DNA of 64,000 nt from positions 69,474 through 133,473 of the forward strand of contig CAYNFE010000001.1 in NCBI GenBank assembly GCA_964396475.1. Direction: 5' to 3'. Source of the DNA: Candidatus Woesearchaeota archaeon. Lineage in GTDB: Archaea > Nanobdellota > Nanobdellia > Pacearchaeales > UBA284. The position numbers were made by a program, and so were the translations under genes. Below, piece by piece: positions 19,011 to 46,833 of the stretch. The first letter of the stretch is position 1; every line of letters starts with the position of its first letter. The notes beneath the pieces were generated by a model. The model did not search any database. It worked only from the letters and a program-made list of their open reading frames with translations, and was not told where the DNA came from.

Positions 19011-19679
19011 TTATGGGATTAAAGGATTTCTCCCTTTAGCCTTCCCTTTATATCTACCACGGGCTTCAACCTTTTTAATCCTTTCTATAATTATACTTGA
19101 TTGTTTTGATTTCTTATAACCTTTGACTACAGAACCAAAATATTTCTCCCATCTCTTAAAGTGTTTTGCCTCAAGAGCCTCTCTCAATAAATGTAGATCA
19201 ACAGCTTTATCCTCTGCTCTAGCTGAATGAAATCCTAAACCAAAATCAATAAAATAAACATCTCTATTTTTTAGAATCATATTGCTAGTAGTCAAGTCAC
19301 CATGAATAATTCCAAAGTCATGAATCAAAGCTGTATTTCTACCTATCTTTTCACAGACAGCTAAAGCTTTTGTCAAAGGAAACTTATCCAATGAATCACT
19401 TAACAATTTTCCCTGAATATACTCCATCTCAATCTCTGTTTCTGGTTCAAATCTTTTTCTTGCCATCCCATTAATAGCCTTAACTCTAGGAACAGCAATA
19501 ATAGAAGCACTCTTTCTCAGTATCTTTGCTTCATGTCTAGTTCTACTTGTTCTAAGAAACAAATCTAAATGTTCGTGACGATAGCCTTTCTTAATTCTTC
19601 TCTTTAAGAGCGAATTCCCTTTTTTAATAAGCAAGGCTTCTGCCCCTCTTCCAATAATTTTTTCTTTCATCCTAATCAA
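19011..19679 (-). CDS. bud32: KEOPS complex kinase/ATPase Bud32 (PRPK)
   Basis: GAEALLIKK...RHEAKILRK...IIHGDLTTSNMIL..VYFIDFGLG is an atypical RIO-like kinase core. Stand-alone, with no Kae1 fusion. Confidence 0.8.
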   Translation of the reverse strand: MIRMKEKIIGRGAEALLIKKGNSLLKRRIKKGYRHEHLDLFLRTSRTRHEAKILRKSASIIAVPRVKAINGMARKRFEPETEIEMEYIQGKLLSDSLDKFPLTKALAVCEKIGRNTALIHDFGIIHGDLTTSNMILKNRDVYFIDFGLGFHSARAEDKAVDLHLLREALEAKHFKRWEKYFGSVVKGYKKSKQSSIIIERIKKVEARGRYKGKAKGRNPLIP

Positions 19680-21127
19680 TAACTCTTAGCTATCCATATA
19701 ATGTGTTTAGCTTTCTTTCCACAGTAAACACACTTACCTCTTGCTTTAGCTTTTTCGTTTATCCCAATAATTTTTGCGCCCTGTGTTTTTGTTTTAATCC
19801 AATCCTCACATTTTTCATTGCCGCACCATTCGCTAACTGTTAATTTCTTATTTTTGATGGCTTTTGTTAATTCAGCCATGTTCTTGACTTTTGTTGTGCC
19901 TTTCTTTAGCATATCTTCTGATTTTTTAAGTAAATTTTTATGAATATCGTCGAGAATTTTCTTAATTTTATCATTCATATCTTTTGTCCTTACTATTTCT
20001 TTTTTCCCTGTATCTCTTCTAACAGCTATAATTTGATTTTTTACTAGATCTTTAGGTCCTATTTCTATTCTTAGTGGAATACCTTTCATTTCCCAATCAT
20101 GAAACTTATAACCAGGACTATATTCTTTTCTATTATCTAAAAAAGTCCTGAATTTGAGATTCTTTTTTAATTCTTTTGCTTTTTTTAGAACTTTTTCCTT
20201 GGTTTTTTCAAAAAGAATAGGGATAATTACAATTTGAACAGGAGCAACTCTTGGCGGAATAATCAGACCCTTATTATCACCATGAATAGCTAGCATTATT
20301 CCTATCATTCTTGTTGTTATTGCCCAGGTGTTTTGCCAGACATACTCTTCTTTTCCTTGCTTGTTCAGGAATTTTATATCGAAAGCTTTAGCAAAAATCT
20401 GTCCGTCATGATGAAAGTCTGGCCCTTGAACAACTCTACCATTCGGAAGAAGACACTCAATAGCTTTTGTAAATTCAGCGCCAGCAAACTTCTCTGATTC
20501 TGTCTTTCTACTGACAAAGCCAGCTATAGCCAGATAATCTCTTAAAATCTCATTATAAATTCCTAGAATTTGTTTTTCCTCAATTAGAGCTTCTTTCTCT
20601 GTTGCAAAACAAGTATGTCCCTCATTCCATAAGAATTCTCTAGGTCTTATTAACAAGATAGGATGTTTAAATTCCCATCTTACAACATTATTCCATTGAT
20701 TATATTTTAAAGGAAGATCTCTCCAAGAACGAATCCATTTTGAATATGAAGTATACATTGCTGTTTCAGAGGTTGGCCTGATTGCCAATCTCTCTTGCAA
20801 TTTTCTTTTTCCAGCTTCTGTCACCCAGGCCACTTCTGGCGAGAAACCTTTTAGATGAGATTCTTCTTTCTTAAGCAATGATTCTGGAATAAAAAGAGGA
20901 AAATAAACATTCTTTATCCCAAGTTTCTTAAATCTTTTGTCTGTTTCTTCTTTAATTTTTTCCCAGATAGCATAAGCAGAAGGCTTCAAGATTTGACATC
21001 CAGAAACAGAACTATAATCAACTAAATCTGCTTTTATAACTGCTTGAGTATACCACTCACTATACTCATCTTTTTCTACTTCCAGACCTAATTTCTTACT
21101 TGTTTTTTTCTCCTTCTTTTTTAGCAT
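19676..21127 (-). CDS. proS: prolyl-tRNA synthetase (archaeal/eukaryotic type)
   Basis: 483 aa. Class II motifs (RPTSETAMY, NQWNNVVRWE, FHHDGQIFAKAF) plus a C-terminal Zn-binding domain ending in Y. Confidence 0.9.
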   Translation of the reverse strand: MLKKKEKKTSKKLGLEVEKDEYSEWYTQAVIKADLVDYSSVSGCQILKPSAYAIWEKIKEETDKRFKKLGIKNVYFPLFIPESLLKKEESHLKGFSPEVAWVTEAGKRKLQERLAIRPTSETAMYTSYSKWIRSWRDLPLKYNQWNNVVRWEFKHPILLIRPREFLWNEGHTCFATEKEALIEEKQILGIYNEILRDYLAIAGFVSRKTESEKFAGAEFTKAIECLLPNGRVVQGPDFHHDGQIFAKAFDIKFLNKQGKEEYVWQNTWAITTRMIGIMLAIHGDNKGLIIPPRVAPVQIVIIPILFEKTKEKVLKKAKELKKNLKFRTFLDNRKEYSPGYKFHDWEMKGIPLRIEIGPKDLVKNQIIAVRRDTGKKEIVRTKDMNDKIKKILDDIHKNLLKKSEDMLKKGTTKVKNMAELTKAIKNKKLTVSEWCGNEKCEDWIKTKTQGAKIIGINEKAKARGKCVYCGKKAKHIIWIAKSY

Positions 21128-24207: not shown

Positions 24208-25260
24208 ATGGAGAGGGCAAAAAAATATTCTATAGATAGGCCAAGACTTGTTTTTGATTATGCTTTACCAATATTTCAGTCTTTAGTGGAAGATAGCCAT
24301 ACTAAAATAAAGGTTCCTCCAGAAAAGAGATTAGTTGGCACTGCAATAGATATAATTTCATTTATTTATCGTTTTTGTTATAAGGATTTAACTGTAATCC
24401 TGCGTCATGAAGGTAAGACTAATTTTTTTGAAAAAAAGACAAAACACATCCCTATGATTTTAGAATTGATAATTGATAAAAATATTTCACCAAAAAATTT
24501 TGTCAGAGGAGGTCACAAAACAGCAATAATTCATCCTCCTTCAGAATATGATTATAGTCTAGCTTCTGTAAGCTCTTCACCATTGTTTAAATCAATAAAA
24601 AGAAAATTTCCTCTTGATGAATTTCTACACAAGTTTTTTGATCTAAAACCAGAATATAAATCAGGAATAATGGTATCTTGTAATTCTACATTTGGATTTA
24701 AGATAGATTGGAGATACCAAAAAGATAATCTTGTTTCTGAATTTCAAAATCATTATCTAGATTCTTCCAAAACCATGAAAAAGATATCACAAACCTTATT
24801 TAATTATGATTGGTCAGTTATACTATCTCTTGCTGTTGATGTGATGGCGGGAAAGTCAAAGGAAGAAATAACTAGAAAAAGATATCCTGAAGAAGAAAAA
24901 GATTTCCTCAGAGAAAGATTAGATAGAAAAATTGAGAAGGCTATTCATAAATCAGCTCCTTGTTTTATTAAGGGATTATCTAAAGGAGAAAATTCATATG
25001 AAATTTGTAAAGCAAATAAATTATGTAGTTGGAATTATTCAAGACTCTATGGATCAAAAATTATGAGTGCTCTTATCAACCGTTCAAAAAGAAAAGAGGA
25101 TACTAAGAGAATTTTAGATTATTATTATAAGGTTACTGGAGAAAATATAGATGTTAAAACTTTTTTGAATGGAATTAGTTTAGAAAGATCAAAAAGAAAA
25201 AGAAAAAGAGCACTGGTGCCATATAAAGATCAACAAAAAGCCTTAGTTTCACTTTCTTAG
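24208..25260 (+). CDS. hypothetical protein
   Basis: 350 aa ORF starting 1 nt after the previous stop. No family recognised. Confidence 0.5.
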   Translation: MERAKKYSIDRPRLVFDYALPIFQSLVEDSHTKIKVPPEKRLVGTAIDIISFIYRFCYKDLTVILRHEGKTNFFEKKTKHIPMILELIIDKNISPKNFVRGGHKTAIIHPPSEYDYSLASVSSSPLFKSIKRKFPLDEFLHKFFDLKPEYKSGIMVSCNSTFGFKIDWRYQKDNLVSEFQNHYLDSSKTMKKISQTLFNYDWSVILSLAVDVMAGKSKEEITRKRYPEEEKDFLRERLDRKIEKAIHKSAPCFIKGLSKGENSYEICKANKLCSWNYSRLYGSKIMSALINRSKRKEDTKRILDYYYKVTGENIDVKTFLNGISLERSKRKRKRALVPYKDQQKALVSLS

Positions 25261-27012
25261 AATTTTTATTATAACCCATAATGCGAATATCACTACAATA
25301 ATTAGTGGAACGAGCCACCAATTATCATTGATAAAGTATAGTGCATTATCAAGGAATGCTAATCCTGTTAAGCTTGGTAGATAATTTGTAGCTAATCCAA
25401 ACTTACTGAAATGACTTATTTTAGCAGAAACTTCATGAACACTTTTATCATCAATGCTGCTTAATGTTACCCATTTTCCTAACTGTTCATCATACATTAT
25501 AATGAAAAGTCTGCCTTTGGCTTCGTCTTCATGATATCTTATTCTTACTTCAGCATCTGGTTCAAATGCAACTCCTGAAGGTAAGAAATCATATCCTCTA
25601 ACTAGCATCATATTTGCTGGCAACGTAGGCATCATTCCAGCAGCCCTTATACTGATTATTTGTTGAGGATTCTTTAGTAGACCATCTTCTAATCTTATTT
25701 CTGAACAATCTGGAATAACAACAAAGGCCATTCCATCATTGCTTTCTATTGTTAATATCCCTTCACAAGTAATAGGTCCTTCTTCTTCCTCTTCTTCTTG
25801 ACCTGGAGCACTCTTACAATCTTCAGGACAATTATAATAAGTTTCTCCCCATTCACAAATTCCATTACCACAAACTGGAGCAGGAGCTGAACCACCACCT
25901 CCACCTCCTCCTCCGCCACCTCCGCCAGAGGATCCAGTAATTGTCATTTGTAAATTATCTTCATTATTATCCCAATTAATACACTCATTATCAGAATCAA
26001 CTACAGCTCTCATTGTGTAGGTTCCGTCTCCAGCTGCAGACCATGTATCTGATACATTAACTGTTGAGCCAGCACCAACATCACCAACATTAATTGTTCT
26101 TATCAAGAGATTTCCACGATAGAGTGTTACAACAACATTTGAAGCATTAATTGTAGTATTCCTATTAACATTTGTGAAAGTAACATTAAAAGTTACTATA
26201 GTTCCATCTTTCACACTATTATCTGAAACAGTGAATGTGTCTATTCCAAGATCTGAACCAAAAATATTAATATTTGCATTAGTATGGCTAGGCTGATAAT
26301 TGAAACCAGCACTATCTTTGTAATTAGCTATTGTCTCCAAAATCTGCACACCACAATAATCAGTATTAATATTAACAGATCTTGTCTGTGTGTTTCCAGA
26401 TAAGATAGTTGTATAGAAGAAATTATCTACCACACCTTCAGCTGTTAGAGTTGTTTGACCATCAACATCATAAGCATCTCCTGTTCCAGTATTACTTATC
26501 CATAGATCTATCAAGCTGTTTTGTTTAGCAATTAAGTTAGCTGGGAGTAATGGATAAGCAAGCAAGATATTTGGAGGTAAGACAGTTGATTGTATTGTGA
26601 TATTTCTTGTAACACTACAGTTGGCTTCATATTCTACAATAATTTGGATAGTATAATTTCCTGGGCTAGTTGAGTTCATAAGCCAAGTGTAATAACCTCC
26701 ACCCAAACCATCATCAATTAAAGTGGCAGGATTGCTTCCTGAAACTATGACTATGCCGGCTGGAGTCCAGTTAAGCCAAACCGGTTGTCCTGCTCCGCCA
26801 AATAAATCATAATATGTTAGATTAAAATTCTGACCTACTTGCAAATCACTTGGTGAGTAAGTTATTATTTTTGTTGTTCCACTACCAGAACATTCTGCTG
26901 CCTGACCAAAAGTTGTCATGATTGTTATAATTACAGCCATCAAAAATGCAATTGTTATGAGTTTTATCTTGACTTTCTTCTCCATTTTATATTTTCTTTT
27001 CTTTTCTTTCAT
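25249..27012 (-). CDS. C-terminally anchored surface protein with CARDB-like domain and Gly12 linker
   Basis: 587 aa. Contains an N-terminal signal/TM and a CARDB-like segment (TFNVTFTNVNRN...VNVSDTWSAAGDGTYTMRAVVDSDNECINWDNNEDN). A 12-Gly run, VCGNGICEWGETYYNCPEDC, a C-terminal TM and KILRK follow. Confidence 0.75.
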   Translation of the reverse strand: MKEKKRKYKMEKKVKIKLITIAFLMAVIITIMTTFGQAAECSGSGTTKIITYSPSDLQVGQNFNLTYYDLFGGAGQPVWLNWTPAGIVIVSGSNPATLIDDGLGGGYYTWLMNSTSPGNYTIQIIVEYEANCSVTRNITIQSTVLPPNILLAYPLLPANLIAKQNSLIDLWISNTGTGDAYDVDGQTTLTAEGVVDNFFYTTILSGNTQTRSVNINTDYCGVQILETIANYKDSAGFNYQPSHTNANINIFGSDLGIDTFTVSDNSVKDGTIVTFNVTFTNVNRNTTINASNVVVTLYRGNLLIRTINVGDVGAGSTVNVSDTWSAAGDGTYTMRAVVDSDNECINWDNNEDNLQMTITGSSGGGGGGGGGGGGSAPAPVCGNGICEWGETYYNCPEDCKSAPGQEEEEEEGPITCEGILTIESNDGMAFVVIPDCSEIRLEDGLLKNPQQIISIRAAGMMPTLPANMMLVRGYDFLPSGVAFEPDAEVRIRYHEDEAKGRLFIIMYDEQLGKWVTLSSIDDKSVHEVSAKISHFSKFGLATNYLPSLTGLAFLDNALYFINDNWWLVPLIIVVIFALWVIIKILRK

Positions 27013-27013
27013 T

Positions 27014-30000
27014 TTATGTGATTGTTATTTGTGTATTATTACTAAATTCATGGTTTCCAGCCCAGCTTGTTAAAGTCTTAAGTCCAGTTGTTGTTGATGT
27101 AACATTCCAGTTTGCTATTTTGAACTGGCTAGGAGCAAGGTCATACCACTGAATAGCTGGCCATGTTGGCAAGATAGTTAATCCAGAGCTGACTTCTAAT
27201 TCAACTCTTAAGTCATAAAATGATTGGGTAGCCCATAAATTCTGTATAACACTTCTTACAAGGAATTGCTGTCCAAGAGGATAGCTTGACTGGTTTGTTG
27301 TTGGCCTGAAAATTGAACAATCAATAGCATCACAGACTTTCCATACTCTTACATCTTGGCTTAGTTCATTATTAGCTAGATTAGTTTCACCAGGAACAGG
27401 TAAGCTTTTAACTTTAACAGTTCTCCAGTTATCATTATTAGCATTCCACAATAAAGTAACTTCTTGTGTCTGACCAATATCTAAGTTGATAAGCTGCCAG
27501 TCTACAGGAACTGAATTGTCCTCTAATGTGACATTAATATTAGTTTCATTTTGATTTCCAACATTACTTACATTAGCTTTTACATAAACTACATCATAAA
27601 GCCATGCAGTTGAACTTGAAACAGATTTATTAGTTCCATTAACTTCCTTGATTAGCTCGATTGAATCAACACTTATATCATGTATAGCTTCTAAGACAGT
27701 AATAAAGTGTGTTGCGCTTCCTTCTGAATAATTCTCATTACCTGCATAATAAGCTGTGATATTATAATATCCAGGATTATTATACACTGAAATATCTGTA
27801 AGAGGACTAGCTCCAAAAGCAAATTGTGTTCCGTTTCTCAATAAACTTAAATCACCAGTTGTTGGAATATTAAGTATACCAGTATGATTAACACTCTCTC
27901 CTTCTGTAATTATTATGTCACTATTTAAACTATTCAAATATAATGTAACAGATGAATTTGCTTTGTTAATTGTTAGGAAATATGTTACTGAAGCTGAACT
28001 ATGATTCTCATCCCCGTTTGAAACAGCAGTATAACTATAATATCCAGCTGCAAGAGTGGCTATTTCAGATTGAGGAGATGTTCCATTAGCGACCATTGTT
28101 CCATTTCTATACAATGTTATATAGCCATAAGGTGTTGTTCCAGTTGCATTGCTAATTGTTCCATAATCAATTGTCAAATTATTCTCAATACCATTCAGAT
28201 AAAGATGAACTTCTCCTGGAAATAAGGCACTTACAATTAATATATTATTAACAGAAGCTGCTGTCCAATTCTGGCTTCCAGTTGTATTACAAACATATCC
28301 ATAAGCCCCTTCTGGAAGTGTAGCAGTTTCATAAATCAAAGTGTAGCCGCTTGCTACTAAAGTATCATTTCTATATAAGTTAATCAAAACTTCATTATTA
28401 TTTGCTTGGCAAGTTATGTTAGTTTCTGTTCCTACTGTAACATTCCATCCAGGCTGAGCACTTAAATTAAGTACTGTTGTTCCTTGAGTAACATTCAACC
28501 ATCTTGTCAGACTTTGTTCAGTATAATTTTGTGAAGCAGGATAATAATATGTATAATTATATAATCCAACACCTAGCTGTGCTATCTCAGTTGCAGGACT
28601 TCCACTTGCTACTATCTGAGAATCTCTGTAAAGTAATGCATTGCTAGCTCCTTGACTGATGTCTAACCAACCAGTTGCATTTGTAGTTGAATTAAAAAGA
28701 ACACTCAAATCATTTTCTTGTCCATTTAGGGCTAGATATATAGTATGATTATCTTGCATTATTATATAAGTTAATAGAGAAGTTGAGTTCCATTGGTTAA
28801 TTGTATCATTTGCATACCATCTATAATTATATGTTCCTACAGCTAAATCAGAAAAAACAAAACTACAGTTTGTATCTAATGAAGGCAATCCAGGATTACA
28901 TACAGGAGTATAATTTGTTCCATCAAATTCAAATATTACAGTATCAACACCAAAATCATCTAGCCATTCTATACTGAAATCATAAGGACCTGAACCATAA
29001 ACAACAGGACTTATAGGATTGACTTGTTCATTCAACCACCAAGGAGGTAAGTCTACTAGAGAAATAATATTTATTGTTCTATTTCTTTCATTATCACTAG
29101 GATTTTCATCAACAAAACCTATAATTGTTGCATTTAAAGTGATATTATATGTTCCAAGTTCATATCCTGTTGTATCCCAATCATATGTTGGATAAGTAAA
29201 AACATTAATTACAGATTGTGTTGTATATAATACTATTTTATGAGTTGAATTGACTAGATAGTAGGTCATATTAACTGTCTCTGGCTGTGTTCCATAATTA
29301 TTCACTCTTGCTTTTAATTCATATGTTAATCCTTGTGTTAAATTTGCTGGATCATCTAGTATTGCTGTACCATTATAACTTATTCTTATTCCATTAACAG
29401 TATTAGTATAATTATTATCTATTCCAACATCATGTATAATCACACTTGTATTAACAATAAAAGTCCAATTCTCAACTGCGAAAGCACTATTGAAAGCATC
29501 ATCTATACATTCAACATTCCATAGATAAACTCCATTTGATAAGTTATTATAGTTCCAATTTCCATTTGTGGCATTAGCTGTCTGTTGGCTTCCATCTACT
29601 TGCCATGCTCCACTTGTATTACTATAGATATTACAATCTAGAAGTAAGTCCATATTATCTGTTACATTATATATTATAGTAACATTCTCATTAGTTACAG
29701 AGTTATTAGGTGGGAATATCAGATTTACAACAGGAGGCTCTATATCTGGAATTGTTGTATTAATAGTGAATGTCCAATTTTCTATAGCAAAAGCACTATT
29801 GAAAGAATCATCAATACACTCAACATTCCAAGTATATGTTCCATCAGGAAGATTTAGATAATCATAAGTATCTGTTGTTGCATTAGCTGTCTGTTGGCTT
29901 CCATCAATCTGCCAACTTCCACTTGCATCACTATAAATATTACAGTCTAATAATAAATCCATATTATCTGTTACATTATATATTACAGTTACATTCTCTA

Positions 30001-33000
30001 TAGGAATTACAGATCCATTTAATGGTGAAACAAGATTTACAACTGGAGGTTCGATATCTCCAGTTATTGTTACAGTTATATTATAAACACTATCAAATGA
30101 ACTACCACCAAATTCACAAGTTGTTGTAACAGTTATGTCTGAAATTCCAACTGCAGCAGCTGTAACATTCCATTGTGTTATAATTGTAGTTCCGCTAGTG
30201 ATATTTCCTAGAACATTAACAGGAGTTGGGGTTGTTAATACAGTATTATTTGAGAAAGTTATTGTTGCATTACAGTTAACAACATCTCCACCAACAGCAG
30301 TGATATTAGCCTCAGTCAAGAAAACATCACTTAAGTTAAATACAGCATTATCATTTGGTTGAGTAATTATTGTTGTCGTATTTCCATAACCAGGGATAAC
30401 TTGTACAACAAACCATGTTGTCTCAGTAGTATTCCAATTATTACTAGTATCATTAGCAAAAATTCTAACACTATAATTTCCAACTTGCATAGTATTTATG
30501 AAGTCGTATAGATATTGGTCTACTGCCATTCCAGGACTCATAGTAAAATTATTCATTGTTAGATCAGGATAAGTAACTTGAGCAAGAACAGTATCTACAG
30601 CAACATTATCTCTTGCAAATGCTGACAATAAAGTATTTTCTGATTGATTTATGAATTGAGGTATTGCATTAACATTCCATACATCTGGAGGAATAATGTC
30701 AGGACCACTAACATTAACAATAAAAGTCCAATTCTCAACTGCGAAAGCACTATTGAAAGAATCATCAGTACACTCAACATTCCATAGATAAACTCCATTT
30801 GATAAGTTAGTATAGTTCCAATTTCCATTTGTTGCATTAGCAGTCTGTTGACTTCCGTCAATCTGCCATGCTCCACTTGTATTACTATAGATATTACAAT
30901 CTAGAAGTAAGTCCATATTATCTGTTACATTATATATTATAGTAACATTCTCATTAGTTACAGAGTTATTAGGTGGGAATATCAGATTTACAACAGGTGA
31001 TTCAGTATCATTAAGTACTGTAACATTAATCCAGTGTGTTTCAAAACTACTTGAATAATTCTGACTACCTGGATAAATAACACTAACATTATGTATTCCT
31101 GTTTGATTGAAACTTGTGATATTAGTTACAGTATAATTATCTACATTAATAAGCTGGGTGTCAAGATAGAGCTGAAGTTCATAAATTCCTTGTCTTGATT
31201 GTATGGCATCTGTATCTTCATTAGGATTAGGCATGCCATCAATCACAGGATACTCTTCTTGATGTGGACTAGGATGTACTGGAATAATTAAATAACCAGT
31301 CATATTAACAATATCATTTACACTAACAGTTATATTGTCATCAATTCCATTAAGTCTTAAGTTTACAAGAGAAAATGCAGGATTAACAATCAATATATTA
31401 TTTATAGATGCGGCACTCCAATTCTGATTTCCGCTCGTATTACAAACATATCCATAAGATCCTACACTAAGTAAGGAAACATCAGGATTATTTACAATCT
31501 GTCCATTTCTATATAAGTTAATTAAAACTTCATTATTATTAGCTGTGCAAGAAACATTTGTTGTTGTTGGATAAGTCACATTCCAGCTTGGTTGTGAGTC
31601 AAGTGTTAATATTGTTGTAGCAGGATCTATAATATATAAAGCAGAAGTGCTAGCTCCACTATAATTCTGTGTTGCTGTGACATTACATATATAATTATAG
31701 CCAGAAGGATTTGCAGCCAATGTAATAGGTAAATTATTTTCATTTGTTACATTAAAACCATCTCTCCATAATTCAGCATTAGCCTCAGGATTTGTACAAG
31801 AACATGAAGCTATGAATGGCTGTTGATCATAAGTAATAGGGCTCTGAGGAACAAAGTTTAATGTACATGAACTATTTGTCTGTCCAACTGTCAACCATCT
31901 TGTCAGACTTTGTTCAGTATAATTTTGTGAAGCAGGATAATAATATGTATAATTATATAATCCAACACCTAGCTGTGCTATCTCAGTTGCAGGACTTCCA
32001 CTTGCTACTATCTGAGAATCTCTGTAAAGTAATGCATTGCTAGCTCCTTGACTGATGTCTAGCCAACCAGTTGCATTTGTAGTTGAATTAAAAGGAACAC
32101 TCAAATCATTCTCTTGTCCATTTAATGCAAGATGTATTGTATGATTATCTTGATTTACAACATATAAACTAGAATTGCTTGCGCCATGATAATTCTGTGT
32201 TTCAGTAACATTACAAGTATAATTAAATATGCCTGCTGGAAGAGGAATTGGAATATTATTGTATTGTGTGATATTTACATCATATATCCAAAGTTCAGCT
32301 TGAGCTTCGGGGTTTGTACAATAACAAGAAGCATTCACATCCACTGGATAAACACTAGGACTTTCTGGATCAAAATTTAAGAAACAACTAGTATTAAGCA
32401 AAACATTGACAACACTAACATTCCATGCTAAAGCATCTTCTCCTCCTTTGTTATCATAAACAATAACATAAACATCATGAAGTCCAGAAGCATTGTAATC
32501 AGGCTGATAATCATAAGAAGAAATTGTTGAAACTTCCTGTCCATCTAAATTCCATGTATAATATAAAGGATCATTGTTAGGGTCAGAAGCCCAAATTTCA
32601 AAATGCAATGTCTGACCTTCATCAACACTTGGAATTAAATCTTGAGGAACATAATCATTAATAACAGGAGGTTGATTAATACCTTCGAACCAAATTGTTA
32701 TTCTATCAGATTCAACAACATGATTTCCTAAATCCTTTGTTTCTGAATAATAAGTATGATTTGCTGGCTGTGTTTCTGTCTTGACCTTAACAAAAGTACA
32801 TGTTGTCTGGCCACCACAATCCTTATATCCCCATTCTTGACCATCTTCATAAATTTTAATCCATCTTATTCCAGCATTTTCAAGATAATCAGTTGCAATA
32901 GCTGTTAATACTGCAGTTGTATTTGTATGTGTTGTATCAGAAAAAAACTGGAGTGTTGGAGGAGGATCAATTCTTCCATCATCAATTCCTACAGGACTGA

Positions 33001-33118
33001 TTCTATTTTCAAATCCTGGTTCAATAACATCAGTAGGGACAACAAAAGAACCAAGCAAGAGAGGTATGAGTATAAAAATTGGAATTAAACTCAAAATTAA
33101 TCTAGCTCTATTATTCAT
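27014..33118 (-). CDS. giant secreted repeat protein (2034 aa), adhesin/S-layer-like
   Basis: Uninterrupted 6.1 kb ORF with an N-terminal signal/TM (LILSLIPIFILIPLLLGSF). Contains a PKD-like segment (YYTWNLDGQEV), CARDB-like segments, internal near-identical repeats and very many N-x-S/T sequons. No C-terminal anchor. Confidence 0.8.
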   Translation of the reverse strand: MNNRARLILSLIPIFILIPLLLGSFVVPTDVIEPGFENRISPVGIDDGRIDPPPTLQFFSDTTHTNTTAVLTAIATDYLENAGIRWIKIYEDGQEWGYKDCGGQTTCTFVKVKTETQPANHTYYSETKDLGNHVVESDRITIWFEGINQPPVINDYVPQDLIPSVDEGQTLHFEIWASDPNNDPLYYTWNLDGQEVSTISSYDYQPDYNASGLHDVYVIVYDNKGGEDALAWNVSVVNVLLNTSCFLNFDPESPSVYPVDVNASCYCTNPEAQAELWIYDVNITQYNNIPIPLPAGIFNYTCNVTETQNYHGASNSSLYVVNQDNHTIHLALNGQENDLSVPFNSTTNATGWLDISQGASNALLYRDSQIVASGSPATEIAQLGVGLYNYTYYYPASQNYTEQSLTRWLTVGQTNSSCTLNFVPQSPITYDQQPFIASCSCTNPEANAELWRDGFNVTNENNLPITLAANPSGYNYICNVTATQNYSGASTSALYIIDPATTILTLDSQPSWNVTYPTTTNVSCTANNNEVLINLYRNGQIVNNPDVSLLSVGSYGYVCNTSGNQNWSAASINNILIVNPAFSLVNLRLNGIDDNITVSVNDIVNMTGYLIIPVHPSPHQEEYPVIDGMPNPNEDTDAIQSRQGIYELQLYLDTQLINVDNYTVTNITSFNQTGIHNVSVIYPGSQNYSSSFETHWINVTVLNDTESPVVNLIFPPNNSVTNENVTIIYNVTDNMDLLLDCNIYSNTSGAWQIDGSQQTANATNGNWNYTNLSNGVYLWNVECTDDSFNSAFAVENWTFIVNVSGPDIIPPDVWNVNAIPQFINQSENTLLSAFARDNVAVDTVLAQVTYPDLTMNNFTMSPGMAVDQYLYDFINTMQVGNYSVRIFANDTSNNWNTTETTWFVVQVIPGYGNTTTIITQPNDNAVFNLSDVFLTEANITAVGGDVVNCNATITFSNNTVLTTPTPVNVLGNITSGTTIITQWNVTAAAVGISDITVTTTCEFGGSSFDSVYNITVTITGDIEPPVVNLVSPLNGSVIPIENVTVIYNVTDNMDLLLDCNIYSDASGSWQIDGSQQTANATTDTYDYLNLPDGTYTWNVECIDDSFNSAFAIENWTFTINTTIPDIEPPVVNLIFPPNNSVTNENVTIIYNVTDNMDLLLDCNIYSNTSGAWQVDGSQQTANATNGNWNYNNLSNGVYLWNVECIDDAFNSAFAVENWTFIVNTSVIIHDVGIDNNYTNTVNGIRISYNGTAILDDPANLTQGLTYELKARVNNYGTQPETVNMTYYLVNSTHKIVLYTTQSVINVFTYPTYDWDTTGYELGTYNITLNATIIGFVDENPSDNERNRTINIISLVDLPPWWLNEQVNPISPVVYGSGPYDFSIEWLDDFGVDTVIFEFDGTNYTPVCNPGLPSLDTNCSFVFSDLAVGTYNYRWYANDTINQWNSTSLLTYIIMQDNHTIYLALNGQENDLSVLFNSTTNATGWLDISQGASNALLYRDSQIVASGSPATEIAQLGVGLYNYTYYYPASQNYTEQSLTRWLNVTQGTTVLNLSAQPGWNVTVGTETNITCQANNNEVLINLYRNDTLVASGYTLIYETATLPEGAYGYVCNTTGSQNWTAASVNNILIVSALFPGEVHLYLNGIENNLTIDYGTISNATGTTPYGYITLYRNGTMVANGTSPQSEIATLAAGYYSYTAVSNGDENHSSASVTYFLTINKANSSVTLYLNSLNSDIIITEGESVNHTGILNIPTTGDLSLLRNGTQFAFGASPLTDISVYNNPGYYNITAYYAGNENYSEGSATHFITVLEAIHDISVDSIELIKEVNGTNKSVSSSTAWLYDVVYVKANVSNVGNQNETNINVTLEDNSVPVDWQLINLDIGQTQEVTLLWNANNDNWRTVKVKSLPVPGETNLANNELSQDVRVWKVCDAIDCSIFRPTTNQSSYPLGQQFLVRSVIQNLWATQSFYDLRVELEVSSGLTILPTWPAIQWYDLAPSQFKIANWNVTSTTTGLKTLTSWAGNHEFSNNTQITIT
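28496..28756. repeat. intragenic repeat A, copy 2 (261 nt, near-identical to 31892-32152)
   Basis: Direct comparison: constant 3396-nt offset with only a handful of substitutions. Encodes ...NGQENDLSV.FNSTTNATGWLDISQGASNALLYRDSQIVASGSPATEIAQLGVGLYNYTYYYPASQNYTEQSLTRWL. Confidence 0.9.
29451..30047. repeat. intragenic repeat B, tandem copies 1 and 2 (~290 nt each)
   Basis: Encodes the ~100 aa module PPVVNL..P.N.SV...NVT.IYNVTDNMDLLLDCNIYS..SG.WQ.DGSQQTANAT...Y.NL..G.Y.WNVEC.DD.FNSAFA.ENWTF. Copy 1 (29451-29734) is near-identical to 30714-30997. Copy 2 is more divergent. Confidence 0.9.
30714..30997. repeat. intragenic repeat B, copy 3
   Basis: 284 nt, near-identical to 29451-29734 at a constant 1263-nt offset. 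Confidence 0.9.
31892..32152. repeat. intragenic repeat A, copy 1
   Basis: See 28496-28756. Confidence 0.9.
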
Positions 33119-33126
33119 TTTTTAAT

Positions 33127-34716
33127 TTATTTCTTTTTAGCTGGTATATAGTGAAGTTCTAAACCACCACCATTTCCATCTTCATTAGTTTTAAAATAAG
33201 CACCAAAACTAATATCATCATAAACTAAAGATCCTGAAAATTTGTGGCTTTTTTTAAAGGAATTATAATTATGCTCTAACCATGTTGCCCAATTCATATT
33301 ACTATAACCCATTTTTGTCTTAAAGTTCCATTGACTAGGTTCATCATAAGTTTTTTCCATGTCAAATTCTGCAAATGGTCCCCAAAATTTTCTAGTAAAG
33401 TCAATATTATTATATTTATGTAATATTTTTTTGTAAACATCATTAATAGATACATTTCTGTCAATATCTCTTCTTTTTAATAAATAATCATTAACAATTC
33501 CTTTTTCTGCTATATTTTTTGGAAGGATATTTACGGCAAAAATCAAACCACCCCCAATAGACCTATCACCAACACCAAATCTTAATGAATTATCTACATT
33601 TTTTATTTTAGAATTTAGTGTTTGTTCAAGATACCAAGGAGATTCTCCATTAGACTTAAAAAAACACCTATCAAAATCTACTCTATAATCTAGGCTCTTA
33701 TCTTTCTTCCCTACTTCAGCCAATAAATTCAAATAATCAGTATTAATCTGGGTTCTGTCTGTAATTAATGAACTTTTATTTCCTATTTCATGGCTTGATA
33801 TAGGGATAGTATCAATATAAGTCTGATTTCCATTTATTCTTACAATTGTTTGTCCATTTATATCTGTGATAATATTAGTATTATTTCTTATTTCATTATC
33901 AATTGTATGATTTTCTAAAACAGTTCCCAAGCCAAATTTTAAATTAGGTTGTGGTTTGATTAGATATTCAAATCTTCCAGAATTTTTGTTGTCTTTATTT
34001 TGTATCCTTGTTCTAGAATCAGTTAAAACATTAATATCAAGATCTGTTTTTGTTATAATTTCTATTCCTTGGTTCTCTCTTGTAGAATCACCATAAACTT
34101 CATGATATCTATTTGTAGTATTATCTTCTGTGACTATTGTACTGTTATTATTTCCTATTTGGAATGTAAATTTACCTAGTCTTAAATCAAGTCCTTTAGA
34201 ATTTCCTTTATCATCTATATCTTGGTTTGATAAATCTTGTTCATCAATAATCTGAGAGTATGCTCCATTTTGGATTAATCCATTTTCTGTTTTTGAGCTA
34301 GATGTTGAATCACTTTGTTGAGATGATATTCTTCTCATATCAATATTTCCAAATAAACCCACCTTTCCATTATAATCTACTCCACCCAAAACACCTAAAC
34401 AAGCAGTTTCTCCATCTTTTTTTGTTTTTACATGCATATAAGGAACAGCCATAAATTCTATATTACTAAGTTTTACCCTAGTTCGAAGATTTCCATTAAA
34501 ACCAAAGAGATCATCTTTTCCAAAATAAGTCTCTCCTGAAAAAGAATAATCAACAATTTCTTTTTTAACCCCTAATGTATCTATCTTTGCACTATCTTCC
34601 TCTAAAACTATCACATCTAAAAAATTATCATTGGACTCTTTTGGTTTTTGTTCTTTATCAGCTGGAGAAGTTCCCATTAGAAACGATAAAATTATGCTTG
34701 ATAATGTACTCATCAT
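33127..34716 (-). CDS. secreted beta-rich protein of unknown function (porin-like sequence texture)
   Basis: 529 aa, first gene of the 34716->25249 operon. Weak N-terminal hydrophobic segment and N/D/S/T/G-rich sequence. Many short alternating hydrophobic/polar stretches are flanked by Gly (ACLGVLGGVDYNGKVGLFGNIDM, LDLRLGKFTFQIG, SIGGGLIFAVNI, ISFGAYFKTNEDGNGGGLELHY). Confidence 0.6.
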   Translation of the reverse strand: MMSTLSSIILSFLMGTSPADKEQKPKESNDNFLDVIVLEEDSAKIDTLGVKKEIVDYSFSGETYFGKDDLFGFNGNLRTRVKLSNIEFMAVPYMHVKTKKDGETACLGVLGGVDYNGKVGLFGNIDMRRISSQQSDSTSSSKTENGLIQNGAYSQIIDEQDLSNQDIDDKGNSKGLDLRLGKFTFQIGNNNSTIVTEDNTTNRYHEVYGDSTRENQGIEIITKTDLDINVLTDSRTRIQNKDNKNSGRFEYLIKPQPNLKFGLGTVLENHTIDNEIRNNTNIITDINGQTIVRINGNQTYIDTIPISSHEIGNKSSLITDRTQINTDYLNLLAEVGKKDKSLDYRVDFDRCFFKSNGESPWYLEQTLNSKIKNVDNSLRFGVGDRSIGGGLIFAVNILPKNIAEKGIVNDYLLKRRDIDRNVSINDVYKKILHKYNNIDFTRKFWGPFAEFDMEKTYDEPSQWNFKTKMGYSNMNWATWLEHNYNSFKKSHKFSGSLVYDDISFGAYFKTNEDGNGGGLELHYIPAKKK

Positions 34717-34853
34717 TTTCCCTTTAGCCTTTAGTTCTCAACGAACTTATTCTATTTATTTTTTTTCTTTTTTAAATCTTTCGCCTTTCTAAACTAAAAA
34801 GTAGTGACAAGAAGGTAGTAAAAAATATATAATATTTTTCTTTATCTTTTAGA

Positions 34854-36167
34854 ATGAAAATATTTTTTACTGTCTTAATTTTAATTCTTCTGTTACCTTC
34901 AGTATCTGCGATAGTGATAAATGAAATTTTACCTGATCCAGAGAGTGATTGGAATGGTAATGGACAGAATGAAACATATGCTGATGAATGGATAGAGTTA
35001 TTTAATACTGGGCAGACAAAAAATTTAACTGGGTGGAAAATAGGTGATAAGGTTGAGAATTATACTTTAAATCATATTATATGTTCTGGATGTTTTTTAG
35101 TTTTGTTTGGTTCTGAAACTTCTTTACAGTTGAATAACAATGATGAAACTGTTTATTTTTATGATAACAATAGTATTCTTATTGATTCTTATTCATATTC
35201 TTCTTCCTCTGATGACTTATCTTTTGGAAGATGTCCTGACGGTAATGCATCTTGGCAATCAAATTTAAATCCAACACCAGGACAAGCAAACAACTGTTCG
35301 CAACAACAGCAAGAAGAAAAAGAATTAAACTTAGATTATCCAGGGCAAGTCGAGTGTGAAGAAGAATTTTATATTGAGATTGAAGCTTCTGGTTTTGAAG
35401 ATGGTGATTATGATGTCAAAATAGATATTCTTAGTGAGAATGACGAAGAGAGAATAGGAAAAGTGTGGAATGAAGAAGATGAGAAATGGCAGTCCACAAA
35501 TAATTATATAATAGAAATTTTAGAAATTGAGAATGACGAAGGAGATGTAAAATTAAAATATAAGATAGAGGATTTTGAAGGAGATGCTATACTAAGGCCA
35601 AGGATAAGGAAAACAGGTTCAAGCTCTTATGAACAGTTTGATGATGAAGATATAGAAGTGGAATGTAATATCCAAGAGGAATCTGAGATCAAAATTCTAG
35701 AATGGCCTACAGAAGCTAGATTTGGTGAGGAGATTAAAGTAGAAATTGAAATTTATCGAGGAGATACAGCAAAATATGCAGTTTATATTTATGTTCAAGA
35801 CAATGAAGGATCAAAAATGAGTGATAAAATTAGTTTACATGCTGATGAAAAATTCCAGATATATACTGAAACTATAACATTGACACTTAAATGCGAGAAT
35901 GAACAAGGAACTTATGAAATTATTGCAGAAGGTTTTGATACTGAAGATAGAAAAGAAATAACAATAGAATCTTGTGAACCTGAATCTGAAGAACCTATGG
36001 TTGAATCTTCTAAAACTGAAACTACCAAGACTAAAACTTATCAATCTAGTCATTCATATCCTAGCTCTGTAGAATCAGAAAATCTTCTAATCAATAAAAC
36101 TTTACCTTATATTTTGTCTTCAATAGCATTACTTCTCGTCATTTATTTAATAATCAAGAAGATTTAA
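34854..36167 (+). CDS. C-terminally anchored surface protein with N-terminal lamin-tail domain (LTD)
   Basis: 437 aa. After the signal peptide comes IVINEILPDPESDW...DEWIELFNTGQTKNLTGWKIGD...ETVYFYDNNSILIDSYSY, an LTD pattern. An acidic middle region, a C-terminal TM and KKI follow. Confidence 0.7.
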   Translation: MKIFFTVLILILLLPSVSAIVINEILPDPESDWNGNGQNETYADEWIELFNTGQTKNLTGWKIGDKVENYTLNHIICSGCFLVLFGSETSLQLNNNDETVYFYDNNSILIDSYSYSSSSDDLSFGRCPDGNASWQSNLNPTPGQANNCSQQQQEEKELNLDYPGQVECEEEFYIEIEASGFEDGDYDVKIDILSENDEERIGKVWNEEDEKWQSTNNYIIEILEIENDEGDVKLKYKIEDFEGDAILRPRIRKTGSSSYEQFDDEDIEVECNIQEESEIKILEWPTEARFGEEIKVEIEIYRGDTAKYAVYIYVQDNEGSKMSDKISLHADEKFQIYTETITLTLKCENEQGTYEIIAEGFDTEDRKEITIESCEPESEEPMVESSKTETTKTKTYQSSHSYPSSVESENLLINKTLPYILSSIALLLVIYLIIKKI

Positions 36168-36947: not shown

Positions 36948-39080
36948 TTAACGTCTTCTTATACTTGAGGGTCTCTGAAATTTTTTCTCATATTGTTTTG
37001 ATGCTTCTTTCAAGAATTCACCCATCTCTTTTCTTGGTTTTTTTCTTATTAGAATATAAATAATGATCAGTATAATTATTATTGCTGCAGATATTATTAT
37101 GCCCCAGGTTCTTCCAGGTGTTGCTTTCTTTTTGCAAGCATCAGCTGGCACACAACAAACAAATGTATCTTTTGCTGCAGTAATATTTCCTTCACAGATT
37201 TCATTTTCTTCTTCTCTACAGATTTTACCTCCTAATTCAGAACAAGTTTTTTCTTCTAAACCTATACTTGTAATATTTATAGTCATAGGAAGGGTTGTAG
37301 TTATTTTTTCTGAATTATATTTTGCTTCAGCTATAATTTCTCCTTCATAGACTCTTGCTATTACTGGTGAAAATGAAATTGTTATTGTTTCTTTTTCTCC
37401 TCTAATAATCTCCTCTATAAAACTTGGATCTATTCTCTCAACAACACCAATCAAGGCAGAACTGTAAGTTAGGGAAATATCTATAATATCTCTATCAAGT
37501 TTATTTTCTAATCTAATGCTAATTGTAAAAGGTCCTTCTGAAACATCTGCTGTTTTTGTGATATTTTTTTCAATGAAATAAAATCTTTTTTGTATCAGGC
37601 TTTCATTAAGCTCTGTAGTTTTATTTTCCCATTCTTGTTCTGTTTCATTTATAATCTCTTGCTGTTCACTCTCATTAAGCTCTTCTTCACTTGAACCCAC
37701 AGAACCATTTATCCCCTCCTGTCCAGTTTTTTCTGTAAATATCAAAATAGGGATTGAATAATCATAATGTTCCTGAGAAATTTTAGATCTGTAATCAAGG
37801 GCAAGGTTTTCAAAGATAGTTCTTCCATCAACTGTAGTTACTTGAGGAATATCAAATCTCAAATTTTTTATACCATTGACAGGCAAATTTGTTATAATAC
37901 TGGAATTAAGCATATTTGTTTCTATGACTATATCACTTATTCCTTTGTTCAATAAAATTAAATCAAAGGTTCCGAGACTTTCTGTTTTTATGATGCCTGG
38001 CCAAAATGCAAGTAAGGGTTCTATGTTTTTATTTTGAAAACCAAAGACAAGCATGAATGATTCATCCACTAGAGATAAAGTTCCTTGTTCTAAAAGCCAG
38101 CTTTCAGATTTTTCTATAGAATCTAAATAACTTGAGTTTGAATAATTATTAGATTTTAAAATGAAAGTAGCGAGACTAGTTGCTTTTATATCTGATTCAT
38201 AACTAGTTAGATTTTTTGGCCACCATCCACTAGTTGTCTGTGAATTTAGAATATGATTTAATATTTCAGAATCTTTTGTCAAATAATAAATAATAGCTTT
38301 TTCTTCGATATTAATAGCATTTTCTTTCAGCCAAGAAATTCCAGCAGCATTAACACTATCATTCTTATCTAATCTTCCTGTCATTGCAAGAGAAAATAAA
38401 GCATAAGCTGTAGCTTCTGTATCACATGGACTGCCCCAGCATCCAGTATTATTATCTTGAGAAGTTTCTAGAATGTCTTGCATTTCCTGTCTTACTAAAC
38501 TATCTTTAAAATTTATAAGAGTAAGGGCATTTAATCTCATACTACATTCTTGATTTATGCAAGAATCATCTCTCTCCTTGTAAGTTGTCAATGCTTCCTC
38601 TTCCAATATATGTGAAAGTGCACCTGCAGAAAGAATATGTTCTTCTAGATCTAGAGTAAGCCATTTATTTTCAACTCTAGGTCTTAAATTTTCATATCTT
38701 GATGTTGTTATCTTTTTAATAGTTAAAGGTGTATTTGCAACATATAAACTTCCATCTTTACAAGTTCCTCTGACTCTCAACAAATAATCATTAGGTTCAT
38801 TAGGTAAGTCAAACCATAAGAAATATTTTGTATCTGTTACTTTTGAGATAAAAATATTAATAGGAAGTTGAGTGCTTCCTCTATAAAAAAAGATATCGCT
38901 AGAAAGAATGTCTCTCATAACATCAGCATCTAATTCAACCTGTACTGTTTCTTCTGGAAGATAAACTGTTTTTGCAAGGTTCAAATTAATGCAAGCTAGG
39001 GCACTAACATTACTTATACAAAAACAAAAAATGAAAATCAATACTATTATTATAAAAAAAATAAAATAATTCTGCCTCAT
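36948..39080 (-). CDS. membrane-anchored surface protein with prenyltransferase/terpene-cyclase-like alpha/alpha-toroid region and one six-Cys module
   Basis: 710 aa with an N-terminal signal. Segments CWGSPCDTEATAYALFSL, AGISWLKEN and NSQTTSGWWPKN resemble QW/SQHop-cyclase-type repeats. The juxtamembrane CSELGGKICREEENEICEGNITAAKDTFVCCVPADAC is followed by a TM and a basic tail. Confidence 0.6.
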   Translation of the reverse strand: MRQNYFIFFIIIVLIFIFCFCISNVSALACINLNLAKTVYLPEETVQVELDADVMRDILSSDIFFYRGSTQLPINIFISKVTDTKYFLWFDLPNEPNDYLLRVRGTCKDGSLYVANTPLTIKKITTSRYENLRPRVENKWLTLDLEEHILSAGALSHILEEEALTTYKERDDSCINQECSMRLNALTLINFKDSLVRQEMQDILETSQDNNTGCWGSPCDTEATAYALFSLAMTGRLDKNDSVNAAGISWLKENAINIEEKAIIYYLTKDSEILNHILNSQTTSGWWPKNLTSYESDIKATSLATFILKSNNYSNSSYLDSIEKSESWLLEQGTLSLVDESFMLVFGFQNKNIEPLLAFWPGIIKTESLGTFDLILLNKGISDIVIETNMLNSSIITNLPVNGIKNLRFDIPQVTTVDGRTIFENLALDYRSKISQEHYDYSIPILIFTEKTGQEGINGSVGSSEEELNESEQQEIINETEQEWENKTTELNESLIQKRFYFIEKNITKTADVSEGPFTISIRLENKLDRDIIDISLTYSSALIGVVERIDPSFIEEIIRGEKETITISFSPVIARVYEGEIIAEAKYNSEKITTTLPMTINITSIGLEEKTCSELGGKICREEENEICEGNITAAKDTFVCCVPADACKKKATPGRTWGIIISAAIIIILIIIYILIRKKPRKEMGEFLKEASKQYEKKFQRPSSIRRR

Positions 39081-44649: not shown

Positions 44650-44665
44650 AAAATAAAATAAAAAA

Positions 44666-46480: not shown

Positions 46481-46833
46481 TGTCAATAGGAAAATATATT
46501 GCTGTAGGATTAATAAGTGCTGTTGTAGGAACTGGTATAACATATCTTGCAACTACTTCATATTATCAAAATCAAGTCAATAATCTACAACAAGAAAATA
46601 TTGAACTAACAAAAGAGAATACTAAACTCGAAAAAAAGTATGAAGGTATGAAAAATTTATTTTTAGAATCAATATCTCTGGAAATAAAAAGTATGGAAGA
46701 AGATTTAAAAGAAGAAGATAAAAGCCAAAAATTTAGCTGGAAAGAATATGAAGAAGAAAAAGAAGCCATAAAAAAAGAAATTCAAAAAGAAATCGGACCA
46801 AATGAACTTGAGAAAAAACTGACTGAAAAATGA
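46480..46833 (+). CDS. single-pass membrane coiled-coil protein (117 aa)
   Basis: N-terminal TM (IAVGLISAVVGTGITYLA) followed by heptad-like K/E/L sequence. The start overlaps the preceding stop by 1 nt, and its stop overlaps the next start by 4 nt. Confidence 0.6.
   Translation: MSIGKYIAVGLISAVVGTGITYLATTSYYQNQVNNLQQENIELTKENTKLEKKYEGMKNLFLESISLEIKSMEEDLKEEDKSQKFSWKEYEEEKEAIKKEIQKEIGPNELEKKLTEK
46732..46781. repeat. 50-nt segment repeated at 47724-47773 (encodes FSWKEY-acidic-EAIKKE)
   Basis: tttagctggaaagaatatgaagaagaaaaagaagccataaaaaaagaaat versus tttagttggaaagaatatgatgatgaagaagaagccataaaaaaagaaat. Confidence 0.8.

Follow-up and report, generated by a model that had tools for sequence, protein, structure and literature searches.

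What kind of surface structure do three adjoining genes of an uncultured archaeon encode, and does the order in which they stand mark them as parts of one system? The genes, here called A, B and C, lie at 25249-34716 in a stretch of 64,000 nucleotides (nt) from contig CAYNFE010000001.1 (hereafter the window). We propose that they form an envelope module specific to the Pacearchaeota lineage, in which B would be the coat, C its stalk and A a barrel-like base or pore in contact with both. The chances for and against this proposal appear to us to be even, and its novelty lies mainly in protein A, which belongs to a new protein family and is predicted to be a barrel with a membrane-type hydrophobic belt.

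Gene Layout and Origin of the Locus

33127..34716, minus strand: gene A, open reading frame (ORF) of 529 amino acids (aa); new family, predicted 20-strand beta-barrel-like protein
27014..33118, minus strand: gene B, ORF of 2034 aa; candidate acidic glycoprotein with multiple immunoglobulin (Ig) domains
25249..27012, minus strand: gene C, ORF of 587 aa; predicted type-I membrane protein, probable start at Met10 (26985)
34717..34853, unstranded: presumed promoter region of A-B-C, divergent intergenic space between A (minus) and the gene of a Lamin-tail-domain (LTD) membrane protein (plus)

The original prediction, made from the sequence alone, had given the extent of the locus and the lengths of its three ORFs exactly, and all three are on the minus strand. 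Its gaps of 8 nt between A and B and 1 nt between B and C are likewise those of the ORFs as called. The second gap is probably 28 nt, with the true start of C at 26985, because in the orthologue alignment every C orthologue starts at the equivalent of Met10 in the window protein. The tight spacing and the gene order suggest that A, B and C are co-transcribed as an operon-like unit. The presumed promoter region is AT-rich and contains TATA-like runs, although such boxes are uninformative at 30% GC and the GC content of the window is ~30%. Codon adaptation of the window genes, calculated on the basis of ribosomal proteins, followed only the GC content at third codon positions and did not separate highly expressed genes. 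The functions given to A, B and C here and below are predictions throughout.

The organism had been suspected to be of the DPANN type. This is borne out by the name Candidatus Pacearchaeota that NCBI gives to the C homologues and the related genomes, and by the archaeal core genes in the window (PCNA, PriL, Hjc, ProRS with an archaeal C-domain, and ribosomal proteins L3, L4 and L11).

Conservation of the A-B-C Order

Homologues were collected by searches with A and C and by an exhaustive profile search with A. The conserved N-terminus of B served as the query in scans of JGI metagenomes and GTDB species genomes, which yielded further loci, and the contigs encoding them were inspected. Hidden Markov model (HMM) mapping covered 25 loci from three collections (numbered here with the prefix L), the informative ones being those on contigs of sufficient length. 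At every one of these the same arrangement was found, with an LTD protein gene on the opposite strand followed by A, B, in some lineages a small gene, and C (A-B-C order at L001, L005, L006, L008, L010, L013-L015, L019, L021 and L024). Downstream of C, either directly or past one to three genes, a radical S-adenosylmethionine (SAM) gene lies on the opposite strand. At the loci read, A and B are separated by 1-50 nt, and the distance from B to C is 1 nt at three of those that lack the small gene; where this gene is present, the gaps on its two sides measure 3-41 nt. For the A family as a whole, the context was examined in 10 of the 11 clusters, and in all 10 A stands directly upstream of a giant of ~2000 aa.

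Giants standing without the flanking genes, which would have counted against the original prediction, were not encountered, with locus L023 as a weak exception. This locus belongs to a more distant relative (46% identity at the N-terminus of B), and its slot upstream of the giant holds a 476 aa protein (L023:8377-9807) in which homology to A was not detected by hmmsearch or hhalign (probability 0.9%). The protein nevertheless resembles A in its N-terminal motif MIKELLIFLLAQTNP, in size and composition, and in a C-terminus that reads ...QYGF, and it may be an A analogue that has diverged past recognition.

The small gene that separates B from C in a subset of lineages encodes 121-148 aa with an N-terminal transmembrane (TM) helix and a coiled coil.

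L005:9574-9996, L006:9628-9993, L007:1422-1868, L012:7786-8136, L019:16487-16927, L024:18094-18528: small TM/coiled-coil gene

It was not found by tblastn in the operons of the window, L001, L008 and L010. The possibility that it is hidden in, or fused to, B or C of the window was ruled out by tblastn as well, and B of the window can be aligned end to end with B of L005. A look-alike of 117 aa, also with a TM helix and coiled coil, is encoded at 46480-46833 of the window in another cluster of secreted-protein genes and matches the small gene weakly (E 0.01). One 8.1 kb contig with A, B and the small gene (JAIMAA010000083.1; L012 and L018) comes from a metagenome-assembled genome labelled Candidatus Bathyarchaeota. 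In view of the gene content of the contig, this label is most likely a binning error.

Protein A: a New Family With a Predicted Barrel Fold

Only 3 homologues of A were found among 5.8 billion proteins, and the exhaustive profile search, made against 1.84 billion proteins, recovered a family that groups into only 11 clusters at the 50% identity level. A has no match in Pfam, NCBIfam or the PDB sequences. The AlphaFold2 model, based on the 13-sequence alignment from the exhaustive search, reached a predicted local distance difference test score (pLDDT) of 84 and a predicted template modelling score of 0.72, and the five models all scored 79-84. Following 50 disordered N-terminal residues, the model consists of 20 antiparallel strands in an all-next-neighbour meander with tight turns; fourteen strands have 10-14 residues and six have 30-38.

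33148..34557, minus strand: beta meander of A, aa 54-523, 20 strands, with a helical hairpin insert at aa 407-443
33709..34362, minus strand: polar "crown" of A, aa 119-336, six long strands (30-38 aa) forming three hairpins above the belt
33787..33897, minus strand: most conserved stretch of A, aa 274-310, IRNxTNIxTDINGQTIV...YxDTIP, tip of hairpin b09/b10
34666..34716, minus strand: short hydrophobic N-terminal segment of A, aa 1-17, conserved, ending S/T-x-P, no basic n-region

When the model was compared with the PDB using Foldseek, 168 matches were obtained at E<=1e-3 (best E 2.7e-8), and 50 of the 50 matches listed are bacterial outer-membrane beta-barrel proteins. TonB-dependent receptors with 22 strands lead this list, and 24-strand ushers are also among the matches listed. 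Matches in a viral structure library were SusC-like proteins, outer-membrane proteins (OMP), porins and autotransporter beta-domains.

The surface of the predicted barrel was analyzed by combining the strand boundaries of the model with hydrophobicity averaged over the family, and the values were compared with shuffles. All 20 strands carry a belt of ~10 residues in which a hydrophobic face (+0.34) alternates with a polar one (-1.14), with z-scores of 7.3 and 8.0. In the long strands the belt sits at the start (odd strands) or at the end (even strands), which places it at one geometric level; outside the belt, both faces of each long strand are polar over its remaining 20-28 residues. Read on the model, this is the pattern expected of a transmembrane barrel whose lumen is polar, topped by a polar crown several nanometres tall, and A is accordingly predicted to insert into a membrane. 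The "porin-like texture" that had been noticed in the sequence of A is thus backed by both the structure prediction and the hydrophobicity analysis.

Residues N287, G288-like and I304 are invariant, and the terminal strands were the least conserved part of A in the conservation scan. Export of A is likely, to judge from its sequence, and a canonical signal peptide occurs in only one member of the family, P0022, which is also the most divergent (MRKVSLLLLLACLFGFGSLAYA|QD). Phenylalanine or tyrosine is present within the last ten residues in 10 of 12 full-length members, and most members have C-termini such as ...TITFGF, ...AGYNF or ...LHYIP.

The TonB-dependent receptors PiuA, Fiu and FptA and the ushers FimD and PapC belong to the only fold class among the listed PDB matches to A. 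A resembles these outer-membrane barrels in strand number (20 against 22-24), in the dyad-repeat hydrophobic belt ~10 residues high, and in a last strand that in most members ends near an aromatic residue. It differs from them in having no plug, no TonB box and no Pfam match, and in turns that are tight at both rims, so that long outer loops are absent and three hairpins of 30-38 residues form the polar crown instead. The organism that encodes it is an archaeon and has no known outer membrane or beta-barrel assembly machinery (BAM). HMMs for POTRA, Omp85, ShlB, autotransporter, plug and TonB_dep_Rec domains gave no Pfam match in A, the model contains no globular plug, and no Omp85-like gene was found among the 33 window ORFs scanned.

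A lipid-transfer groove of the "beta-taco" kind was considered for A and rejected as the primary reading, the hydrophobic positions being confined to the ~10-residue belt. LptD-, TamB- and VPS13-like folds were not present among the Foldseek matches listed. In the complete Pacearchaeota genome Pace33H (CP061211.1, L010:8392-9988) the A orthologue has an in-frame TAG at codon 433, beyond which a conserved, alignable frame continues to the normal end ...LGILYVPR*. The orthologue may have become a pseudogene recently, the codon may be read through or recoded, or the TAG may be an error of sequencing.

Protein B: a Giant Rich in Glycosylation Sequons

33038..33118, minus strand: N-terminal hydrophobic segment of B, aa 1-27, MNxxARLILSLIPIF..PLL, candidate signal-anchor, nearly invariant
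31859..32956, minus strand: most conserved globular part of B, aa 55-420, 65-79% identity between lineages; Big_9/PKD at aa ~148-230, conserved sequons
29443..31005, minus strand: span of a 300-nt unit in three copies (29443-29742, 29752-30051, 30706-31005), 93% and 69% identical
28490..28768, minus strand: 279-nt unit, 95% identical to 31886-32164
27359..27625, minus strand: CARDB-like module of B, aa ~1832-1920, 20.1 bits, below the cutoff of 22.7

The mature form of B has a calculated mass of about 221 kDa and an isoelectric point of 4.05. Its sequence contains 110 N-x-S/T sequons for N-glycosylation, as compared with 43.9 +/- 5.6 in shuffles (z 11.8), a 2.5-fold excess, and four B orthologues are enriched to a similar degree (z 12-15). 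The sequons of A and C were in no comparable excess (z 0.3 and 1.5, respectively). Because the sequons are enriched in B and not in the other two proteins, B is the candidate for an exposed component covered by glycans, the glycosylation itself being predicted.

Pfam identified a Y_Y_Y domain in B (40.7 bits, cutoff 26.6), and scans of segments added Big_9 (30.7 bits, cutoff 23.6) and a borderline PKD_4 (27.4 bits, cutoff 27). Together with a Big_9/PKD module, three Y_Y_Y/Big_7-like modules, the CARDB-like module and many unassigned but inter-related repeats of ~90 aa, B would comprise about 20 beta-sandwich (Ig-like) modules. The hints of PKD-like, CARDB-like and Ig-like domains in the original prediction agree with these scores and with the stronger CARDB match in C given below. 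The three 300-nt copies encode the Y_Y_Y/Big_7-like modules at aa ~700-810, 1015-1125 and 1125-1230, and the two 279-nt copies correspond to aa ~321-413 and ~1453-1545, which are 94% identical as proteins. The latter pair looks like a recent intragenic duplication of an Ig-like module, and two module types (300 nt, 93%; 279 nt, 95%) thus appear to have been duplicated recently. The length of the B orthologues ranges from 1791 to 2240 aa between lineages. A comparison of B with PDB chain sequences gave no significant match.

B had been described as an anchorless protein with a signal peptide and no C-terminal anchor. The last part stands, since the only hydrophobic segment is N-terminal (aa 3-33) and a C-terminal TM helix is absent. 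A cleavable signal peptide, on the other hand, is not established, and the term anchorless is doubtful. Across 5 lineages 13 of the first 21 residues are invariant, and their alignment shows no conserved cleavage site of the small-x-small or AxA type after the segment. A proline-rich, unalignable spacer of 20-62 aa follows, and then a highly conserved first domain. On account of the invariant segment, the missing conserved cleavage site and the spacer of variable length, we lean slightly towards a retained signal-anchor with a tether over a cleaved signal peptide.

Protein C: a Predicted Membrane-Anchored Stalk

25963..26253, minus strand: CARDB domain of C, aa 254-350, E 4.6e-9, 36.8 bits, cutoff 22.7
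25816..25929, minus strand: poly-Gly hinge (8-13 G), then CGNGICEWGE..CPxDC cysteine knot, aa ~362-399
25252..25377, minus strand: aa 546-587 of C, P-x-L-T-G, ~16 aa, (G)NWW, TM helix, K/R tail

The architecture of C is conserved throughout the eight orthologues compared. From the N-terminus it comprises a signal peptide, two beta domains, CARDB, poly-Gly, the cysteine knot and an acidic/polar linker, followed by a beta domain ending ...HFSxFAL, P-x-L-T-G, ~16 residues, (G)NWW, the TM helix and a K/R tail. Positions G366-G374, C381, C386, C395 and C399 are invariant. The N-terminal segment of the window protein is signal-like, and the C-terminal TM helix with a basic tail that had been read from the sequence is present at aa ~560-587, with ...KILRK as the tail. 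C thus has the features expected of a type-I, stalk-like membrane protein, and the surface location originally suggested for B and C is supported.

P-x-L-T-G, TM helix and basic tail together recall a sortase signal, but motif and spacing differ, being neither LPXTG nor PGF and not adjacent to the TM helix. The window ORFs scanned include no gene for a sortase-like or other sorting enzyme. When all loci were searched locally with an HMM of the anchor module, C orthologues alone were recovered, hence no sorting module is shared there, and a word-indexed search with the same C-terminal module returned a single fragment. PDB sequence matches to C were discarded as artefacts of the Gly linker.

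Rates of Divergence

Identity to Pace33H (L010): A 33%, C 77%, radical SAM 81%, 350 aa gene 77%, B 77% (N-terminal 800 aa)
Identity to L005: A 32%, C 51%, radical SAM 63%, 350 aa gene not present, B 61% (full length)

By these comparisons A is the fastest-evolving gene of the region. Identity of B to distant relatives is 53-61%, against 58-63% for the radical-SAM gene, and by this measure B appears to be as conserved as its housekeeping neighbours. Because the crown tip is the most conserved stretch of A, aa 274-310 could be a docking site for a conserved partner, with the remainder of A free to vary.

Comparison With Known Surface Systems

The original prediction could match the triad to no described archaeal system, but B and C have a parallel in the S-layer of the Sulfolobales. 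There a bicistronic slaA-slaB operon encodes a large glycosylated sheath protein, SlaA, and a C-terminally anchored stalk protein, SlaB (PMC5744192). As in that operon, B and C adjoin in the same orientation with the larger gene first. B is, like SlaA, rich in N-glycosylation sequons and without a C-terminal anchor, and C is, like SlaB, the smaller protein, with beta-sandwich domains and a C-terminal TM helix. Unlike SlaA, B is built as a beads-on-a-string chain of Ig modules and has a conserved TM segment at its N-terminus. In C a poly-Gly hinge and a cysteine knot take the place of the trimeric coiled coil of SlaB, and the pair is preceded by a third, barrel-like gene. Homology between A-B-C and SlaA/SlaB was tested and not found (PDB sequences at E<=1; Pfam and NCBIfam), and the likeness is therefore one of design only. 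B and C may be functionally similar to SlaA and SlaB without belonging to that family.

Giant surface proteins are also known from another DPANN archaeon, Nanohaloarchaeum antarcticus, in the form of the SPEARE proteins. In the Micrarchaeota, SLP_Mh, a protein of the S-layer, has canonical archaeal S-layer domains (bioRxiv 10.1101/2021.04.28.441871). B is, like these, a large, secreted and glycosylated DPANN protein (in the case of B by prediction), and the question of a cleaved N-terminal signal versus an anchor is common to them. It differs from SLP_Mh in the absence of canonical S-layer domains (Pfam, NCBIfam) and from SPEARE in the absence of protease or nuclease modules, and for the flanking genes A and C no counterpart has been described. 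Within the papers that could be searched, we found no description of the A-B-C cluster or of OMP-like barrels in DPANN archaea. The exception is one paper that briefly notes, for the Altiarchaeales, what may be a distant relation of the PopA porin-like family (PMC12228718).

A Proposed Envelope Module and Its Alternatives

In the envelope module that we propose, B would form an exposed outer coat of ~220 kDa subunits, densely N-glycosylated and arranged as an S-layer-like canopy or as long fibrils. It would be held at the membrane by its own N-terminal signal-anchor and proline-rich spacer, by C, or by both. C would be the stalk, consisting from the outside in of the two beta domains, CARDB, the poly-Gly hinge, the cysteine knot, the last beta domain and the TM helix. 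A would be exported and, as a barrel-like base or pore element of the envelope, embedded in the membrane by its bilayer-sized hydrophobic belt; its crown would project from the belt, and the conserved tip would dock on a conserved, membrane-proximal part of B or C. The topology of B and all contacts between A, B and C in this scheme are predicted.

Several observations weigh against such a module. None of the S-layer families was found in A, B or C (Pfam, NCBIfam; Methanococcus/Pyrococcus-type domains, DUF1608, PGF-CTERM), nor was the homology of the giant to a canonical S-layer protein that had been considered beforehand (Pfam, NCBIfam, PDB); the result for B counts against the proposal, and so do its ~20 tandem Ig modules, an architecture commoner among adhesins or fibrils than among lattice proteins. 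Were a 20-strand barrel to lie open in the energised membrane of the cell itself, a plug would be needed, and we know of no barrel insertase in archaea. Because an in-frame TAG interrupts A in one complete genome, A may be dispensable. Most members of the A family lack a canonical, Sec-type signal peptide, the template modelling scores (TM-scores) of A to real barrels are 0.2-0.35 with a root-mean-square deviation of ~30 Å, and the flanks of the triad are syntenic as well (LTD, MJ0538, 710/803 aa and radical-SAM genes), so that the linkage may partly be general synteny and conservation of the order alone is no proof of functional coupling. The last three points would also be expected if A were mis-modelled, a soluble or cytoplasmic beta-rich protein, and the three genes were mere syntenic neighbours for separate surface proteins. 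The model moreover rests on 13 sequences, a run with 4 sequences gave a pLDDT of 28, and at L023 the slot upstream of the giant is taken by the protein without detectable homology to A. We consider this explanation unlikely all the same, given the pLDDT of 79-84 in all five models and a belt that recurs in 20 of 20 strands with z-scores of 7-8 and geometrically consistent ends, for which only the strand boundaries were taken from the model; a soluble protein offers no explanation for a 20-strand meander whose outward face is hydrophobic. As for mere synteny, the flanking 350 and 227 aa genes vary in presence while A is joined to B by short gaps in all 10 clusters examined, the A-B association, exclusive as it is, and the shortness of the intergenic gaps go beyond general synteny, and even the L023 protein retains the N-terminal motif, the size and the C-terminal ...QYGF.

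Instead of an envelope, the locus could encode a host-attachment apparatus, the role for which the original prediction saw such giants as prime candidates, with B as a glycosylated adhesin reaching the host, C as its tether and A as a secreted barrel in the membrane of the host, where it might open a passage for metabolites or lipids which the reduced symbiont is unable to produce. The organism is a DPANN archaeon, the Ig-like/PKD/CARDB string of B shows recent intragenic duplications and a variable length, and the divergence of A from Pace33H, far above that of C, the radical-SAM protein and the B N-terminus, is what an arms race or the tracking of a host would produce; A also combines a bilayer-type belt with an absence of sequon enrichment. 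However, B is well conserved and lies in a core syntenic block, which agrees no less well with an envelope structure made constitutively, the lineage has no known host, and no sign supports release of A from the cell. The conserved part of A is moreover the crown tip and not the belt, which suggests a partner in the same cell, and neither toxin-like nor lipid-transfer folds are among the matches listed for A. We therefore regard host attachment as possible but rather improbable. A further alternative starts from the type V secretion systems of bacteria, in which tpsB-tpsA and cdiB-cdiA place a barrel gene beside an exoprotein gene and intimin and invasin join a barrel to a chain of Ig-like domains. 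Here A would translocate or anchor B, as in two-partner secretion (TPS) or a split inverse autotransporter, which implies an outer membrane-like compartment. The position of a ~530 aa barrel gene directly upstream of a ~2000 aa repeat-rich exoprotein mirrors TpsB-TpsA and CdiB-CdiA, the combination of barrel and Ig chain recalls the surface display of intimin and invasin, and the fold matches listed for A are all outer-membrane barrels, ushers and autotransporter beta-domains included. Yet A has no POTRA-like or other alpha/beta N-domain and no Omp85, ShlB or autotransporter Pfam match, its model has 20 strands and not 12 or 16, B has no TPS domain (Pfam) and carries a conserved N-terminal TM segment of its own, and an outer membrane is unreported for the Pacearchaeota, archaea as they are, all of which makes a type V-like pair very unlikely.

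Whether as the base or pore of the proposed envelope or as a pore planted in a host membrane, A would on these predictions be the founder of a family of membrane-embedded, OMP-like barrels in archaea, a suggestion that we put forward only tentatively.

Significance

Pacearchaeota are widespread, uncultured, ultra-small archaea. A review of archaeal S-layers from 2017 noted limited to no S-layer information for recently proposed phyla, Pacearchaeota included (PMC5744192). The A-B-C cluster supplies a concrete candidate for their main surface structure. As far as we know, transmembrane beta-barrels are confined to the outer membranes of bacteria, mitochondria and plastids. This view would be challenged if a conserved protein of archaea had a belt of the bilayer type, and one would then have to ask how targeting and insertion of such a barrel proceed; if the prediction is true, A would be the first credible archaeal transmembrane beta-barrel, assembled without BAM. 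The fast divergence of A (33%, against about 77-81% for its neighbours) marks it as a likely contact point with hosts or viruses and makes it a potentially useful marker in studies of DPANN host range and arms races.

Neighboring Surface Genes and Other Features of the Window

The LTD protein encoded across the divergent promoter region (34854-36167, plus strand) has a signal peptide and a C-terminal TM helix. Beyond it lie the genes of two proteins without a Pfam match, 710 and 803 aa long (36948-39080 and 39119-41530, both minus strand), each with a signal peptide and, close to the C-terminus, a TM helix. Where related loci extend upstream of A, these three genes are syntenic, with 46-74% identity, and the envelope region of the window may span about 25.2 to 41.5 kb. 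On the other side, the 3' end of C overlaps the convergent gene of a 350 aa protein (24208-25260, plus strand) by 12 nt (25249-25260). This gene and the adjoining one for 227 aa have no Pfam match and occur in the closer relatives L001 and L010, not in L005-L007.

Further surface genes that lack Pfam matches form a second group at 43825-50366 (plus strand; 274, 604, 117 and 1178 aa) and 50929-53521 (minus strand; 616 and 249 aa). The 274 and 249 aa proteins both begin ...KRGQVTLFIIIAI..., a start reminiscent of the class-III (type IV pilin-like) signals of archaea. At 17276-18085 (plus strand) a protein with Staphylococcal-nuclease and Lamin-tail domains has a lipobox-like N-terminus, MKKLLIVLILVLFLVSGC, and is conserved in L005-L007; it is probably a surface-tethered nuclease.

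ProRS (19676-21127, minus strand) is 74% identical to that of L007 and only 40% identical to those of L005 and L006, which occupy the same syntenic slot, whereas the adjoining genes are about 58-68% identical to L005, L006 and L007 alike. This difference suggests that ProRS exists in two divergent forms, or that transfer has replaced the gene in the lineage of the window.

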